Source: an uncultured delta proteobacterium (GTDB lineage Bacteria; Desulfobacterota; BSN033; UBA1163). Taken from it: a stretch of 64,000 nt of DNA. The notes beneath the pieces were generated by a model, which worked only from the letters and a program-made list of their open reading frames with translations, searched no databases and had not been told where the DNA came from. Position numbers and translations under genes: made by a program. Each line of letters begins with the position of its first letter. Position 1 is the first letter of the stretch. Shown piece by piece: positions 6,481 to 12,698 of the stretch. The DNA lies in contig CAWHBU010000007.1 in the NCBI GenBank assembly GCA_963827685.1, forward strand, positions 96,001 to 160,000, read 5' to 3'.

Positions 6481-7350
6481 TCAGTCGCTCACTTCTTGTC
6501 TCTTATGGGCTTCGTACCTTTGCCGCCCCTCCTTAAAAAGTCTTTCTTCCTCTTCCGTCGTGATCAGGAGAGGGGGCACTTCCGTGGGCTTGCCCGTCTT
6601 GTCCAGAGATACATAAATGAAATTGGCGGTCAATGCCTTTTGCTTCTTCTCTTGAGCGATGTTTTCGGTTTCCACTTCGACGCGAATCTCCATGGAGGAA
6701 TGGCCGACGAAGGTCAGCGAGGCATGAACCAGTAATACATCCCCTACCCTCACAGGTTTCAAAAAAAATATATTATCCACCCTGACGGTGACAACGTTCG
6801 TATGGGCATGGCGGGCCGCTACAACGCCGGCGGCATTATCCATGATCTTCATAACTTCTCCACCATGAACGTAGCCCGCCAGGTTGGCCTGGTGGGGCAA
6901 CATCAGTTGGGCCATGACAACGGAAGAATGTCCCACGGTCCTTTCTTTGGGAGTGATCTGTTCATCAAACTGTTTTAACAGATTAAGACAAATTTCTTCG
7001 TGTTTCGCCTCCACCTTACTCATCCCCTCGAAACATCCGGCGATCTCCCCGAAACCTTCTTCTCTCGCCGTCTTGGCGAATTCAGGATACATGACGGTGC
7101 CCTCATATTTCTCTCTTTGGGCGACAGCCTCGAGGTTCTTCCTTGTATCTTTAATGTGGCCGAGGAACTCAAAATGCGTCCTGGCATGCTCTCCCTCATT
7201 TTGGGCGATCTCCCAAAAGACATCGGCGATATGGTCGTGACCTGCTTTTCTGGCCGCATCGGCATAGTACGTATAAGTATTCTGAGCCCGCGATTCATCG
7301 GCGAACGCGTTCTCTAAATTTTTCTCTGTCCCGCTTTCTTTCAAGTTCAT
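6481..7350 (-). CDS. Rubrerythrin (di-iron) domain fused to an acyl-CoA thioesterase (hotdog, YciA-like)
   Basis: N-terminal ES..Y..NE.EHA..MYPEFA..E..H motifs; C-terminal NLAGYVHGG..MD motif. Confidence 0.8.
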   Translation of the reverse strand: MNLKESGTEKNLENAFADESRAQNTYTYYADAARKAGHDHIADVFWEIAQNEGEHARTHFEFLGHIKDTRKNLEAVAQREKYEGTVMYPEFAKTAREEGFGEIAGCFEGMSKVEAKHEEICLNLLKQFDEQITPKERTVGHSSVVMAQLMLPHQANLAGYVHGGEVMKIMDNAAGVVAARHAHTNVVTVRVDNIFFLKPVRVGDVLLVHASLTFVGHSSMEIRVEVETENIAQEKKQKALTANFIYVSLDKTGKPTEVPPLLITTEEEERLFKEGRQRYEAHKRQEVSD

Positions 7351-7720: not shown

Positions 7721-8471
7721 TCATTTAATCGGGATTTCGAAAGGCCTCCCGTTGTGCGAAAACCGTACCCGGTCGGGGTAGATCTCCTCAATCTTCACCC
7801 CTTCGACGACAGAGCCCTCGTTGGCGATTACACCGTTGACCATAACGAAGCGTTTCGAGGGGCTCTTCATACCAGACGATCGCCGATAATTTTAACGACG
7901 GCAAAGTCGTGGCAGATCCGTTTGAGGGGGGTGCACCGATCTTAGAAGTTTTGCCCTCTGGAGGGGTCTCGATCTTTGGAGGCACCCGACTTACTCTTTC
8001 TCGAGCGTCACGAGCCGGTTCCTGGGAAAGTGGGGCAGGTGCAACCGGCTGACTCGGCACAGGAGGATTCGTCGGTGCAGGGGGGGATGATTTCGACGGA
8101 AAGCCGGAATCCAGTGGAACAGGCGCCCGTTGTTGAGTCGGTGTAGGAAGATTCGTCGGCCCAGGTGGCGAAGATCTCGACAGCAAGCTGGAATCCGGCG
8201 GAGCAGTTGCAATCAGCTGAGTCGATACAGGGGGACTCTTCTGCTCAGGTGGCGATGATTTGGGCAGAAACCCGAACTTCAACATTACGGCATAGGTAAT
8301 GACGACAGCGGCGATTGCTGTAAGGCAGACAGTGGCAACATACAGCGGAAATTTTTTCCCGGGACGGGGCAGATCGGGCCTGAGAATCTCGATGGCGATA
8401 TTGGCCGCTGCGCTCCGGCGAGACAACTTTTCGCGATCGAGTTTTCTCAGAGCATCCAGTATCACGCTCAT
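7721..8471 (-). pseudogene. exeB: GspB/ExeB-like protein with one extra base (real frameshift or sequencing error)
   Basis: MSVILDALRK start, TM segment and Pro-rich linker; C-terminus ..KRFAMVNG..EGVKIEEIYPDRVRF in another frame; G4 run at 7859-7862; length is 3n+1. Confidence 0.7.
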
Positions 8472-10105
8472 TTTCGTCCCACCGTGAGTCTCGGAAGTTC
8501 AAAACGTTTGATGGATCCATATAAAAACATCAGTGTCTGCCCCCCCACGATACCATCTTCATCAATTCCCCTGGACGACTGAAACTTTTTGACGGCCAGA
8601 ACAGTATCGCCGTCATAAACCCCCGTCAAGGGCCTGCTGTAGACTCCTGCCTCTCTGAGAAGGTCCTGAAGCCTTTTAATGTGGCCTCCCCCTGACCCCG
8701 GCGATATATTGGTCAGGAGATTCAAGGAATCCTTCCAGAGAACGAAGCCCTGGCCGGACCAGTGCTTTTCGAGCTCGCTCGACGAAAGGGATCTCCTCCC
8801 TGCAATCGGTGGATCGATAAGAAGCTGTTCGTTCTCCATGCCCACCAGCGAAATGAAGCGTTTCCCCGGTATATCCGGCAGGGTAAGTTCGAGAGCTGCC
8901 GGACAATCGATGCGAAGCAAGGTGCCCAGGTTTCCAGAAAATCTGTACAGACGGAGCTCCCGGTCAAGAGCTGCCCGTTCCATTCCGTTGAACTGGCTCA
9001 AGTTGACGCCTTCCGGGACGGGTGAAACTTTCCATAAGCTGGCCAAAGTATTAAAAGCCCTTCGGACGCTTTCTGATTCCGGGACCTTCCCGAGTTCAGC
9101 AACCATGGCACGGGAGAATCCTTCACCGGCAATAAGGGGGTCCTTGGGGGGCTGCTCCTCCGTTGCCTTGACGTGTGAAGCAATAAACCGGTTGATGAAA
9201 CCAGGCCGTGTCAAGTAGATTCCCGCCACAACGAGGGCCGCCAGGATGACAAATGTGGGGATCAGGATAAGACGTCGTTTCCGGGTATAGGACGTCGTAT
9301 TCCTTCTCATGTCTTTGATCCCTTCTGCAGCAATCTGGGAACTTATCCTCGCCGTGTCTCTTGTGTAGCCGGTCAGAAGCGCCCGATCGCAGGCCGCATT
9401 GATCAGTCTCGGGAGCCCACGTGAATACCTGTATATCCGCTTCAAGGCCCTCATGGAAAAGATGTCACCGCCCCTTCCTCCTGCTGCGACAAGCCGGTGG
9501 TTGACGTAAAGGACGGTGTCCTGAAAATCCATGGGCTGCAGATGATATCGCACGGTGATCCGCTGGCTGAGCTGCCTCATTTCGCTCCTCTCCAGAATCT
9601 GCAAAAGCTCGGGTTGTCCGGACAGGACGATCTGTATCAGCTTTTCCCTGTCTGTCTCCAAGTTCGAGATCAGCCGGATCTGCTCGAGCACCGGTGCTTC
9701 CAGATCTTGCGCCTCATCGATGACGAGAACGACAGTACGGCCCTCGGCATTTTGCTGGAGAAGAAACACGTTGAGGGCATCCAGGGAACTTGAGTTATTG
9801 GAAGGGTTGGATCGAATACCGAATTCCCGGTTTATGTTTTGAAGAAGCTCTGCCGGCGAAAGACAGGGATTGAAGATCAAGGCCGTAAGGTGATGATCCG
9901 CATCAAGCTGGCTGAGCAGTGCGCGCAAAACCGTTGTTTTCCCCGATCCCACCTCTCCTGTCAGGGCAATGAATCCTGCACGATTGTTAATGCCATACAG
10001 AAGGTGGGCAAAGGCTTCCTTGTGGGTCTTGCTCAGGAAGACAAAGCGGGGGTCGGGGGTCAGGTTAAAAGGCTTTTCCCGGAAACCATGAAAGTCGAGG
10101 TACAT
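8468..10105 (-). CDS. exeA: ExeA/GspA AAA ATPase with peptidoglycan-binding domain
   Basis: GEVGSGKT, IDEAQ and C-terminal FQ..GI..DGIVG motifs. Confidence 0.9.
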   Translation of the reverse strand: MYLDFHGFREKPFNLTPDPRFVFLSKTHKEAFAHLLYGINNRAGFIALTGEVGSGKTTVLRALLSQLDADHHLTALIFNPCLSPAELLQNINREFGIRSNPSNNSSSLDALNVFLLQQNAEGRTVVLVIDEAQDLEAPVLEQIRLISNLETDREKLIQIVLSGQPELLQILERSEMRQLSQRITVRYHLQPMDFQDTVLYVNHRLVAAGGRGGDIFSMRALKRIYRYSRGLPRLINAACDRALLTGYTRDTARISSQIAAEGIKDMRRNTTSYTRKRRLILIPTFVILAALVVAGIYLTRPGFINRFIASHVKATEEQPPKDPLIAGEGFSRAMVAELGKVPESESVRRAFNTLASLWKVSPVPEGVNLSQFNGMERAALDRELRLYRFSGNLGTLLRIDCPAALELTLPDIPGKRFISLVGMENEQLLIDPPIAGRRSLSSSELEKHWSGQGFVLWKDSLNLLTNISPGSGGGHIKRLQDLLREAGVYSRPLTGVYDGDTVLAVKKFQSSRGIDEDGIVGGQTLMFLYGSIKRFELPRLTVGRK

Positions 10106-10341
10106 CAGAGCAAATTCCTTGATACTTTCGTATCGTCAAATGGAAAAGGGGAAAAACAGAGAAACCGCAGAATATTGCTTCGATTCGGGCCATCTTAAAA
10201 TAGCAGATTCCAGGATGGATGTAAAACAAATTCTTGGGAGAGTAATCCCTCAGTTATCGTTGGCGGTGATTTGGTAGGGGTGCTGGGCGGATTTTCGAGA
10301 AGCTCCCACCTTCGAGGAGGCAAGCTTCCAAAAGATTTATA

Positions 10342-10375
10342 CCTGCCCGCGCGTAGCCGCTTCGGCGAAGGCAGG
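10342..10375. repeat. Short CCTGCC..GGCAGG palindrome
   Basis: CCTGCCCGCGCGTAGCCGCTTCGGCGAAGGCAGG; same ends as the inserts at 268-320 and 7516-7535. Confidence 0.55.
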
Positions 10376-10567
10376 GCGGAAACCTCTCAGCGCAACCTAT
10401 CCGAGATGGAAGTTCCCGAACGACCCTATTCTTTGGAATGGCGACGATTGTCCATAACATCTTAACGATCCGCTTGATAAAGCTTTAGAAGCATCCCCGC
10501 CGAATCATTGGGGTCAGAGCCTAACCTCTCGCATCCATAAGGGGTTACTTTGGTAGTAATTTTCTCC

Positions 10568-10595
10568 TTGACATTTGAGAAAAATATGGTAAAAA
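10568..10595 (+). promoter_or_regulatory. Sigma-70 promoter of the leader/MBL transcript
   Basis: TTGACA-N16-TAAAAA with TG just upstream of the -10. Confidence 0.55.
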
Positions 10596-10621
10596 GGATA
10601 TATTGTCGAGGGTAAGGACGT

Positions 10622-10681
10622 ATGATGCAGTTCAGGAATTTCTTTTACTTTTATTTTAATAGGGCTCACCCATATCCCTGA
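10622..10681 (+). CDS. Phe/Tyr-rich leader peptide MMQFRNFFYFYFNRAHPYP
   Basis: 19 codons, TAAGGA RBS, six consecutive Phe/Tyr codons. Confidence 0.8.
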   Translation: MMQFRNFFYFYFNRAHPYP

Positions 10682-10786
10682 GCCGAGCTATATAGTAAGG
10701 GATGCCATGGGTGAGCCAGATGTTCCCCATGGCTTTTTTGTTTCTGCATCACGAAGGCCATGGAAACCATATTCCATGGCCTTTTT
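10663..10786 (+). promoter_or_regulatory. Transcription attenuator: antiterminator plus two terminators
   Basis: 10663-10673 pairs with 10707-10717; terminator 1 is 10704-10739 and terminator 2 is 10754-10786, both with T tails. Confidence 0.8.
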
Positions 10787-10851
10787 GATTTCAGCAAAGG
10801 CGATGATTACCAAAAATAAATCAGAATATCGTTAAGGAGGCTAAAGATCAC

Positions 10852-11775
10852 ATGAATGCAAGAAAGCATGAACCGATTAAGATCACTCCACATTTTTTCC
10901 AATTGGGCACGCCTGCCTTCCCCGCCTATTTGTCCATGGGAAAGGAAGGAATGATTATCGAAGGGGGAACAGGCCCCACGTTCACGATCATGATCGATCA
11001 GATCGAATCATTGGCGATCGATCCAAAGACGATAAAGTATATTGTTTTGACCCATACCCATCCGGATCACATTGGGGCGGTACCGCATTTTCAGCGCGAT
11101 TGGCCTCATATAAAACTCTTGGCAAGCCCCATCGGCGCTAAAATACTTGGCAAGACAGAGCTGTTCAAAGAATTCCAGCTGGTTGATCTTGGCATTGCCC
11201 AGTTGATGAAGGCAAAATCTGAGATCGATACATTGCCAGAGCCCGTTGAAGACTATGCCTTTAGTGTTGATTCTGTCGTCAAGGAAGGGGACAGGATTGA
11301 TTTGGGCGCGGGCATCGCATGGAGGGTTTATGAAACACCCGGCCATTCACCCTGTCATATTGCTTTGTTTGAGGAAAAGGAGGGCACTCTGGCGCTCGGT
11401 GATACCTCAGGATTCTATGTCCCTGGAAAGGATGTATTTTGGCCCAATTATTTTGAATCGCTTGAGAAATACTGCAATACGATCCGGAAGCTGGCTGCGC
11501 TTCCGGCCAAACGAGCTGTCCTTAGTCACAATGCGGTGATTGAAGGAGATGTCCGGCAGCATTTGGAAAAGGCCATGAAGGCAACGGAGAAGTATCATCA
11601 GGAGCTTATGGAAAGATTGGCGAACGGAGAACTCTCTGAAGAGATCGCCATGGATAAGGCTCGGTTCGTCGACAGCCTGACCGATATTCAGCCTTTTAAG
11701 GTCATCTATGATCTCTGTAAGGTGCTCATCAAGAATTCTCTGCAAAATGGAAAAGATGATCATTTTGTTTTTTAG
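10852..11775 (+). CDS. MBL-fold metallo-hydrolase
   Basis: THTHPDH, TPGHS, GD and SH motifs; AAGGAGG RBS. Confidence 0.85.
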   Translation: MNARKHEPIKITPHFFQLGTPAFPAYLSMGKEGMIIEGGTGPTFTIMIDQIESLAIDPKTIKYIVLTHTHPDHIGAVPHFQRDWPHIKLLASPIGAKILGKTELFKEFQLVDLGIAQLMKAKSEIDTLPEPVEDYAFSVDSVVKEGDRIDLGAGIAWRVYETPGHSPCHIALFEEKEGTLALGDTSGFYVPGKDVFWPNYFESLEKYCNTIRKLAALPAKRAVLSHNAVIEGDVRQHLEKAMKATEKYHQELMERLANGELSEEIAMDKARFVDSLTDIQPFKVIYDLCKVLIKNSLQNGKDDHFVF

Positions 11776-11828
11776 AAAGGACCTAGCCGCCGTTGGGGTC
11801 CTTGACATGTACGCACTGCTTCACTTAT

Positions 11829-12698
11829 TTAAGAGATGAATTCCAGGTAGTACTTTGCTGTCTCACCAGGTCTTTCAATCATCGGTAAGTGGCCGCAGTC
11901 CTTCATCACAATGACCTTTGAATTTTCGATCCCCTTCTGGAGGACCGGCGCACCTGACGCAGGGAATACACGGTCGGTATCGCCCCAGAGAATAAGAGTC
12001 TTCGCCCGAATCTCCCCTATTGTCGTTTCCAATTGGTTGCCGGGGTTCGCTTCAATAAATACCTTCTTGTTGAAGTCCTTGCTCCGGACTGCCACTTCGG
12101 CTAAATAGGATTTCACCGGGCCGGGGATAAACGGAGGCTTGACAAATAGGAAATCCAACAGCTTGTCATAGTCTGAGACAGATTCGACAATGAGAGGATT
12201 GTTCCCTTTTGCGAGCTCCAGGGAGATCTGGCTTGGTTCGCGGTCGATCACGCCGCCCGGATCCAATAGCCCGAGGCTCAGAATTTCATCTGGATACGTC
12301 GCCGCATAGACGCCGGCGATCAATCCCCCCATGGAATTTCCCGCTATATGAAATTTCTTCAGACCTATCTTCTCCGCGTACTGATGAAGTCTCTTTACCT
12401 GCACGGCAATATCGTACCGATCGCTCCAGATTTTCGAGCTTTCACCGAATCCCGGCAGATCGGGCGCAATCACATGATACTTTTTCGTGAGATATTTGGA
12501 AAATCGTGTCCAGTTGTCTTTATCCCCTCCGAACCCATGGAGCAGCAGAACCGTTTCACCTTTCCCGCCTTCGACATAGACGATTTTATAATGATCGACT
12601 TGAATGGATTTTTCGCTAAGGCCCGCCGAGCCCCTTTCGACACGTCTGGCAAGCACAAACAGGAAAGAGGAAATAATTTTTTTTATTCCAATATTCAT
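11829..12698 (-). CDS. Alpha/beta hydrolase (lipase/esterase)
   Basis: HGFGG, GNSMGG and GH motifs. Confidence 0.85.
   Translation of the reverse strand: MNIGIKKIISSFLFVLARRVERGSAGLSEKSIQVDHYKIVYVEGGKGETVLLLHGFGGDKDNWTRFSKYLTKKYHVIAPDLPGFGESSKIWSDRYDIAVQVKRLHQYAEKIGLKKFHIAGNSMGGLIAGVYAATYPDEILSLGLLDPGGVIDREPSQISLELAKGNNPLIVESVSDYDKLLDFLFVKPPFIPGPVKSYLAEVAVRSKDFNKKVFIEANPGNQLETTIGEIRAKTLILWGDTDRVFPASGAPVLQKGIENSKVIVMKDCGHLPMIERPGETAKYYLEFIS

Follow-up and report, generated by a model that had tools for sequence, protein, structure and literature searches.

Why should the gene of a metallo-hydrolase be preceded by a leader peptide rich in phenylalanine and tyrosine? The question is raised by a locus of an uncultured delta proteobacterium, contig CAWHBU010000007.1 of assembly GCA_963827685.1, which was analysed over a stretch of 64,000 nucleotides (positions 96,001 to 160,000), here called the window. 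The pheL, trpL and hisL leaders act by ribosome-mediated transcription attenuation. Like them, the leader in the window comprises a short open reading frame (ORF) with a run of cognate codons, whose 3' end is an antiterminator arm, and a downstream intrinsic terminator, in an arrangement predicted to switch the gene on under starvation. It differs from them in having, in one group of loci, two U-tailed hairpins joined by a relay, in matching no Rfam family and in regulating a hydrolase instead of a synthase or synthetase. The original prediction, drawn from the DNA of the window, was a Phe/Tyr attenuator with a two-terminator relay that controls a hydrolase with a possible part in a non-canonical aromatic amino acid supply route. 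Judged by sequence comparison, a Phe/Tyr-sensing attenuator of the hydrolase gene is strongly supported, with translation of the leader and the regulation itself as predictions. The attenuator family is real, is absent from Rfam and has a probable relay, and its worth lies in the metabolic link that it exposes.

The predicted 19-codon ORF with its FFYFYF run is present in the window (Table 1), although the spacing of its Shine-Dalgarno-like site suits the second ATG (10625) better and the peptide may have 18 codons. The pairing proposed for the leader end, 10663-10679 with 10698-10717, exists as a duplex of 17 bp with a 3-nt bulge and an energy of -29.1 kcal/mol (z -4.0, 0/200 shuffles as good). 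Both terminator hairpins lie where they were predicted and are more stable than almost every one of 200 shuffles (terminator 1, -19.9, z -4.0, 1/200 as good; terminator 2, -22.4, z -7.0, 0/200), and so does the segment holding the relay, 10727-10736 with 10754-10763 (-17.1, z -4.0, 0/200). A consensus scanner detected terminator 2 alone, and did not list the TTGACA pair at 10568 but a neighbouring pair at 10575-10604. A TTGAC[ATG] element is found 80-170 nt 5' of the leader stop in 46/49 of the leader loci described below, against 6% of random windows. Rfam covariance models returned no family at the gathering threshold for window positions 10000-12000 and six orthologue loci.

Orthologous hydrolase loci were gathered from genomes and metagenomes, with the best 80 of 253 metagenome relatives retained. 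Matches below 40% identity were removed, as were three self-duplicates and six exact duplicates. This left 104 rows, the window included and near-duplicates among them, of which the 90 with at least 250 nt upstream are informative. An automatic test demanded a short ORF with at least four Phe or Tyr codons in seven, a start codon and a U-tailed hairpin, 70-330 nt 5' of the gene. The search of orthologue upstream regions and of the rest of the genome that had been suggested with the prediction was made with this test, which was passed by 42/90 informative loci and by 3/3,502 ORFs of at least 200 amino acids (aa) in the genome of the window, namely the hydrolase, an aminotransferase and a DUF362 gene. 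By curation leaders are recognised in 49/90 loci, and a quick-search tree (98 rows, without bootstrap) distributes them over six or more well-supported clades, down to 41% protein identity. The locus L001 shows 97% identity. Five Phe-rich leaders of unclear layout (L043, L076, L078, L080, L082) were left uncounted; in the last four the run of Phe codons extends up to the stop codon, with a conserved hairpin after it and a terminator farther away. On the opposite side of the balance stand the 41/90 informative loci with no counted leader, including L002-L004 at 82-83% identity, and the kinship of the loci, which are not independent in any of the counts.

The best eight-codon windows of 50 leaders, selected for maximal Phe/Tyr content, contain 191 Phe, 88 Tyr, no Trp and 1 Leu codon, while Trp codons occur singly beyond these windows in several leaders. 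Since the codons for Phe and Tyr are rich in T and the choice of windows maximised their number, such an ORF could in principle be a chance reading of T-rich DNA. The probability of this is practically nil: T-rich DNA alone would also yield Leu codons, and TTA, TTG and CTT are missing from all 400 window codons, whereas both synonymous codons of Phe and of Tyr are in use, TTC and TAC being common. Length changes within the run preserve the frame, in most loci a distance of 8-9 nt separates the end of the antiterminator arm from that of the stop codon, and the background of the automatic test is too low for an accident. Codon choice and Shine-Dalgarno sites point to translation of the leader. 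Together with the covarying antiterminator, codon usage and the automatic counts strongly support a ribosome-sensed Phe/Tyr attenuator.

The duplex between the leader end and the 5' arm of the terminator beats shuffles (p <=0.05) in 43/50 loci, and three of the seven failing loci form 10-14-bp duplexes with a longer window, a figure that has no shuffle control. In an unfitted alignment of 19 two-hairpin leaders, 4/11 antiterminator pairs show two-sided changes, amounting to 8 cells against 3.1 when shuffled. With the register fitted to the best complement, four adjacent pairs swap among AT, GC, CG and TA across 31 distinct leaders. A probable Chloroflexota group has unrelated hairpin sequence with the same switch logic. 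Lack of conservation of the leader and its pairings, named in the original prediction as grounds for giving it up, is contradicted by these results, as the leader is conserved and the antiterminator covaries. Folding of the alternative structures agrees: with ribosome-footprint masks the probability of the antiterminator is 0.75-1.0 when the stall is placed at F7 or F10, and 0.0 with the ribosome on the stop codon, where terminator 1 forms, which is the geometry of a switch that is on under starvation. At equilibrium the antiterminator probability drops to 0.04-0.27 once the U-tail is complete, and folding order therefore matters. It is proposed that the leader is translated and that, when Phe and Tyr are plentiful, the ribosome at the stop codon would cover 10663-10679, terminator 1 would form and transcription would end. 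When Phe or Tyr is scarce, the ribosome would stall in FFYFYF and the free leader end would capture the 5' arm of terminator 1; the 3' arm thus set free would then hold the 5' arm of terminator 2 while the polymerase passes, and the gene would be read.

The last step, by which one stall disables both terminators, is the part of the original prediction that stands only in part, although the relay is probably functional. Its complementarity is present, with 96% of cells paired, four pairs invariant, three changed on one side and none on both. A palindromic core, CCATGG, is shared by both hairpins, so that their arms pair automatically, and the second hairpin could be a duplicated terminator, in which case the relay complementarity would be incidental and play no part in regulation. 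Many orthologues manage with a single terminator, the relay helix has -13.5 against -21.2 kcal/mol for terminator 2, and the latter, once complete, forms at an equilibrium probability of 0.92. The relay would thus work only kinetically, which is likely, if less secure than the attenuator itself. In stall simulations the relay reaches a probability of at least 0.87 in 18/19 loci. With the ribosome at the stop codon hairpin 1 dominates in 16/19, while the model still favours the relay in 3/19 and splits evenly in the window locus (0.52/0.48). A duplicated terminator of this kind is nevertheless somewhat unlikely, since the gene would be silenced by a second terminator that escaped control. In six loci of two lineages (L007, L033, L052, L061, L063, L064) hairpin 1 has no U-tail (1-3 T in the 9-nt tail), and the leader pairs with hairpin 2 at -10 to -13 as against -18 to -23 with hairpin 1; here the leader would reach its sole terminator chiefly through the relay. 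Deviations in terminator 2 affect 3/133 positions of the doubly paired 5' arm against 12/133 of the singly paired 3' arm. In three two-hairpin loci with a changed 5' arm, hairpin 1 retains a wobble by which the relay is preserved; in single-terminator loci the Watson-Crick pair is restored at this place. The hairpin chain of hisL is the nearest known layout, and the leader family provides naturally occurring variants in which the control of two terminators by a single stalled ribosome could be studied.

Table 1. Features of the attenuator locus in the window and further aromatic leaders of the same genome.
Feature	Position	Strand	Remark
Probable sigma-70-type promoter	10568..10595	+	-35 TTGACA 10568-10573; weak -10 ~10590-10595
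Shine-Dalgarno-like site of leader ORF	10613..10618	+	TAAGGA
Leader peptide ORF	10622..10681	+	reads MMQFRNFFYFYFNRAHPYP, then stop
Sensor codons	10640..10657	+	FFYFYF
Antiterminator 5' arm	10663..10679	+	last leader codons; partner 10698-10717; covariation
Terminator 1	10704..10742	+	hairpin 10704-10733 and U-run
Relay helix	10727..10763	+	10727-10736 with 10754-10763; predicted to act during transcription only
Terminator 2	10753..10790	+	hairpin 10753-10784 and U-rich tail
Shine-Dalgarno site of hydrolase gene	10834..10840	+	
PqsE-fold metallo-hydrolase gene	10852..11775	+	307 aa; putative (R)-aryllactyl-CoA thioesterase, substrate suggested by context
F/Y leader	C3:424799-426177		before PRK06836 aminotransferase
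F/W/Y leader	C6:364588	-	before ADH synthase-DHQ synthase II-pheA-GNAT operon
Y leader	C6 ~368130	-	before DUF362 Fe-S gene
W leader	C6 ~349600	-	before trp genes

The regulated protein is indeed a hydrolase of the metallo-beta-lactamase (MBL) fold, as its PF00753 domain, invariant metal ligands and PqsE-like structure model indicate. PqsE of Pseudomonas aeruginosa is its best PDB sequence match (E 7e-18), and the model (pLDDT 91.5) superimposes on PqsE over the full chain with a TM score of 0.84, sharing the HxHxDH motif, the His/Asp/His ligands with their spacing and the C-terminal helices. The ligands H68, H70, D72, H73, H165, D184 and H226 are invariant in 20/20 aligned sequences; a strict four-motif test is passed by 83/95, most misses being changes beside the ligand. 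PqsE is described in PMC6204780 as a CoA thioesterase acting on 2-aminobenzoylacetyl-CoA, and fold and context together suggest that the hydrolase is an acyl-CoA thioesterase as well. It is not a PqsE orthologue, given an identity of only ~22% and neighbours unrelated to pqsABCD, no pqs genes having been seen near it; its associations are with radical dehydratases, a GNAT protein and Phe/Tyr attenuation. A subclass B3 beta-lactamase (NCBIfam score 65, cut-off 240) and glyoxalase II (GloB; 47, cut-off 201) were rejected, and a D-aminoacyl-tRNA deacylase or a role in methylglyoxal detoxification was set aside because the dehydratase linkage would be left unexplained. The distribution of the hydrolase is patchy, with 4/68 genomes of the class and 16/401 genomes of a phylum sample, and two copies occur in one locus or genome in L076 and in genomes G262 and G291.

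What the hydrolase acts on is suggested by its neighbours. A 2-hydroxyacyl-CoA dehydratase-type gene (PF06050) adjoins it in 30/104 loci, in most of which an activator ATPase is also seen, and GlcD/GlcF/CCG-type genes do so in 15/104. The dehydratase-type genes form two modules, one with a single HadB-like subunit and one ATPase (E 2e-53 to HadB), the other with two HGD-D subunits and two ATPases. Both retain the HadB-aligned Glu and three Cys, residues whose roles are known (see also PMC5897657). None of 24 genomes with a strong match to the two-ATPase module matches the HadB-like one, and 14/16 hydrolase genomes of the phylum sample carry one dehydratase type as against 105/401 overall (counted by hand). 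In four related loci (L058, L059, L062, L089) a Tyr-rich leader heads the hydrolase and the two-subunit module, with GlcD in three, and in L066 a Phe-rich leader heads the hydrolase, a HadB-like gene and an ATPase; a check of 43-163 nt between hydrolase and dehydratase in these five revealed no terminator. Family III CoA-transferases lie beside five hydrolase loci and a PRK06836 aminotransferase beside two, L072 has an NAD-type D-2-hydroxyacid dehydrogenase whose fold is unrelated to GlcD/GlcF, DAHP synthase, aroA or aroC lies upstream in 9/104 loci, and an enoyl-CoA hydratase gene lies 5' of the hydrolase gene in one clade. None of the partner proteins reaches the NCBIfam cut-offs for HadB/HadC and Bcr/Bzd. 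In L056 only the last codons of the HadB-like gene remain between hydrolase and activator, through deletion or an assembly fault.

Dehydratase loci that have no adjacent hydrolase look different. An AMP-type CoA ligase is present in 8/11 of them and a GlcD-CCG fusion in 6/11 (a count that leaves out L163, with its miscalled ORFs), and 0/18 such operons tested has a leader. The 30 loci with both hydrolase and dehydratase show no CoA ligase within the available sequence, several of them being short, and in five genomes of this kind no ligase exceeds 43% identity to the query, compared with 60% in the genome of the window. The operon of HadB-like gene, activator, CoA ligase and GlcD-CCG fusion is widespread (L159-L168, L209), and a HadB-like gene occurs in 78/401 phylum-sample genomes; it is possibly a catabolic aryllactate route of sulfate reducers. 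Phenyllactyl-CoA dehydratase-like genes are mentioned for a sulfate reducer, in a catabolic context, in PMC13416013. In L160 and L162 a hotdog thioesterase and an HDAC lie beside the HadB-like operon.

The gene set resembles FldABC/FldI/FldH of Clostridium sporogenes and HadABC/HadI in its dehydratase-type subunits with Glu and three Cys, activator ATPase, family III CoA-transferase and D-hydroxyacid dehydrogenase. The 3-aryllactate route of C. sporogenes (PMC5897657) is known as catabolic and reductive, whereas the genes here would be induced by starvation, and a thioesterase and a flavin/Fe-S dehydrogenase take the place of a reversible transferase and an NADH enzyme. Dehydratase, thioesterase and D-hydroxyacid dehydrogenase would together connect an enoyl-CoA to a 2-oxoacid, and because the leader names Phe and Tyr the 2-oxoacids would be phenylpyruvate and its 4-hydroxy form. 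It is moderately probable that the hydrolase is an (R)-aryllactyl-CoA thioesterase which, on Phe/Tyr starvation, pulls an aryllactate route of the Fld type back towards arylpyruvate. The substrate would be (R)-3-phenyllactyl-CoA or (R)-3-(4-hydroxyphenyl)lactyl-CoA, on a route leading from arylpyruvate to aryllactate (by a GlcD/GlcF-type dehydrogenase), aryllactyl-CoA and arylacrylyl-CoA (by the radical dehydratase with its activator ATPase). Hydrolysis of the CoA ester would be a one-way step that pulls towards arylpyruvate, from which Phe and Tyr could be made by transamination. Where the dehydratase lies in the attenuated operon, net synthesis from cinnamoyl- or coumaroyl-CoA may result, and a lone hydrolase, as in the window, would spare arylpyruvate from breakdown and may reverse the route. 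Operons of the ligase type would accordingly be catabolic and those of the thioesterase type anabolic.

Gene context thus favours the non-canonical supply role of the original prediction, and not its substrates: the salvage of arylacetate fits worse, as the partners point to aryllactyl-CoA and a thioesterase would presumably destroy the arylacetyl-CoA that is needed. A broader rival keeps the attenuator and the CoA thioesterase and assumes another aromatic ester, arylacetyl-CoA, a benzoylacetyl-type ester or the product of a reaction like that of benzoyl-CoA reductase. PqsE itself acts on such an ester, one clade has an enoyl-CoA hydratase gene ahead of the hydrolase gene, and in one locus (L211:6261-11366, also L127) pheA is divergent from iorAB-like genes that stand directly upstream of the attenuated hydrolase. 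No other locus agrees with the arylacetate idea. The two-ATPase module is also like BzdNOPQ/MbdONQP, the class I benzoyl-CoA reductases, in its layout and in its best PDB match, BzdO. It scores far below the cut-off (102 against 449 for BzdO), and differs in being accompanied by a hydroxyacid dehydrogenase and a thioesterase-like gene. The Ior neighbour is found in 1/104 loci against 30 with dehydratases, D-2-hydroxyacid dehydrogenases of two unrelated folds argue for a 2-hydroxyacid product, arylacetyl-CoA hydrolysis would be expected to oppose Ior-based salvage, and the single-ATPase module is clearly HadB-like. Another ester is therefore an unlikely substrate.

Several points also weigh against aryllactyl-CoA. 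According to PMC5897657 its dehydration is reversible but favoured in the forward direction, and net reversal would consequently be uphill and have to be drawn on by thioester hydrolysis; if arylpyruvate is only spared, no uphill step is required. The HadB-like module has an alpha subunit only, with no beta gene in the loci seen, and the two-ATPase module matches BzdO better (E 2e-22) than HadB (2e-17) and may be a reductase. A counted leader is present in only 5/30 dehydratase-linked loci, in two small clades, the identity to PqsE is low, and in the genome of the window the module lies on another contig than the hydrolase, with no leader. Finally, PheA is present in 38/42 and TyrA in 24/32 hydrolase genomes, so that there is no general need for the route, which would be mostly supplementary.

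The genome of the window (94.5% complete, 8% contaminated) holds four more aromatic leader attenuators with tandem hairpins (Table 1). It also has the two-ATPase module (L035:6013-10635, C1:128-132.6 kb), which is present in 11/11 family genomes sampled, two ligase homologues (81% and 60%) and a GlcD-CCG fusion (59%). With the attenuated aminotransferase, these genes elsewhere in the genome suggest that the lone hydrolase acts as a direction switch. TyrA (PF02153) was found neither in this genome nor in 10/11 family members tested, which invites the idea that the hydrolase itself replaces TyrA or PheA. This is highly improbable and was rejected, both enzymes being common in hydrolase genomes; moreover the hydrolase has the narrow class distribution given above, while most family members tested have no TyrA. 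The two-ATPase module may be what supplies tyrosine where TyrA is missing, since TyrA is found in 7/23 genomes with this module (six weak matches), 11 of the 23 belonging to one family, against 21/22 with the other module, and since the leaders of the module, in four related loci, are rich in Tyr. The attenuated DUF362 gene is a competing candidate for the same role.

A 525-aa GNAT protein follows or is fused to the hydrolase in 16/104 loci, with an in-frame fusion of at least 800 aa in 11, has its own F/Y leader in 19/29 loci and is encoded by the fourth gene of the attenuated aro operon of the window's genome. These facts might suggest that hydrolase and GNAT protein form an acylation/deacylation pair on a small aromatic intermediate, or that the hydrolase salvages N-acyl-Phe/Tyr. 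The GNAT gene is found in 34/401 phylum genomes (for example L034:773-2350 on the minus strand, and L179-L208), and the 16 hydrolase carriers and 34 GNAT carriers share only four genomes, so that the pair is not obligate. Such a pair would also leave the linkage to dehydratase and dehydrogenase unexplained, and the deacetylases that recur near the GNAT gene, HDACs and in three cases sirtuins, fit protein acetylation better; the idea is quite improbable. The structure model of the GNAT protein (pLDDT 82.9) matches generic GNAT domains only, its C-terminal part having no clear match, and an Atlas comparison places it in a cluster of its own, with GNAT-plus-kinase-like leads. Acetylation of CoA ligases by GNAT proteins is known, and 27/34 GNAT genomes hold a dehydratase module (counted by hand). 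The co-regulated protein may acetylate and switch off the opposing CoA ligase, which is the weakest step of the proposal.

Beyond these subjects, the window contains a short palindromic repeat at 10332-10387 with ~50 matches in the genome, and a longer stretch at 10331-10536 has two further partial copies. On the minus strand, 6481-7350 encodes a rubrerythrin domain fused to a hotdog (4HBT) thioesterase domain, and 7788-10105 codes for an AAA ATPase bearing a peptidoglycan-binding domain and then for a proline-rich membrane protein, a pair resembling ExeA/ExeB.

Fermentation routes are run backwards, and aromatic acids salvaged, for amino acid supply elsewhere. Syntrophus aciditrophicus makes glutamate by a reversed 2-hydroxyglutarate route and methanogens salvage arylacetates through Ior. 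The substrates and enzymes differ from those considered here, and we know of no attenuator for either. A mainly open-access search of main texts found no description of the leader, of its regulon or of a reversed aryllactate route; comparative attenuation surveys (Vitreschak 2004; Lopatovskaya 2010) may list deltaproteobacterial Phe leaders, also in supplements. The leader ties a PqsE-like hydrolase, a radical dehydratase-type enzyme, a hydroxyacid dehydrogenase and a GNAT protein to two named amino acids, and the substrate thereby becomes testable with few CoA esters. Tentatively, and with some doubt, it may be suggested that anaerobes of the Desulfobacterota and Chloroflexota make Phe and Tyr by a reversed, ribosome-sensed radical aryllactate route, in which arylacrylyl-CoA would be hydrated, released by the thioesterase, oxidised and transaminated while the GNAT protein shuts off the opposing ligase. 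If so, anaerobes of sediments and digesters would spare or make these amino acids in an undescribed way, with a catabolic radical enzyme employed in biosynthesis, and lineages with no detectable TyrA would have a candidate for their tyrosine supply.

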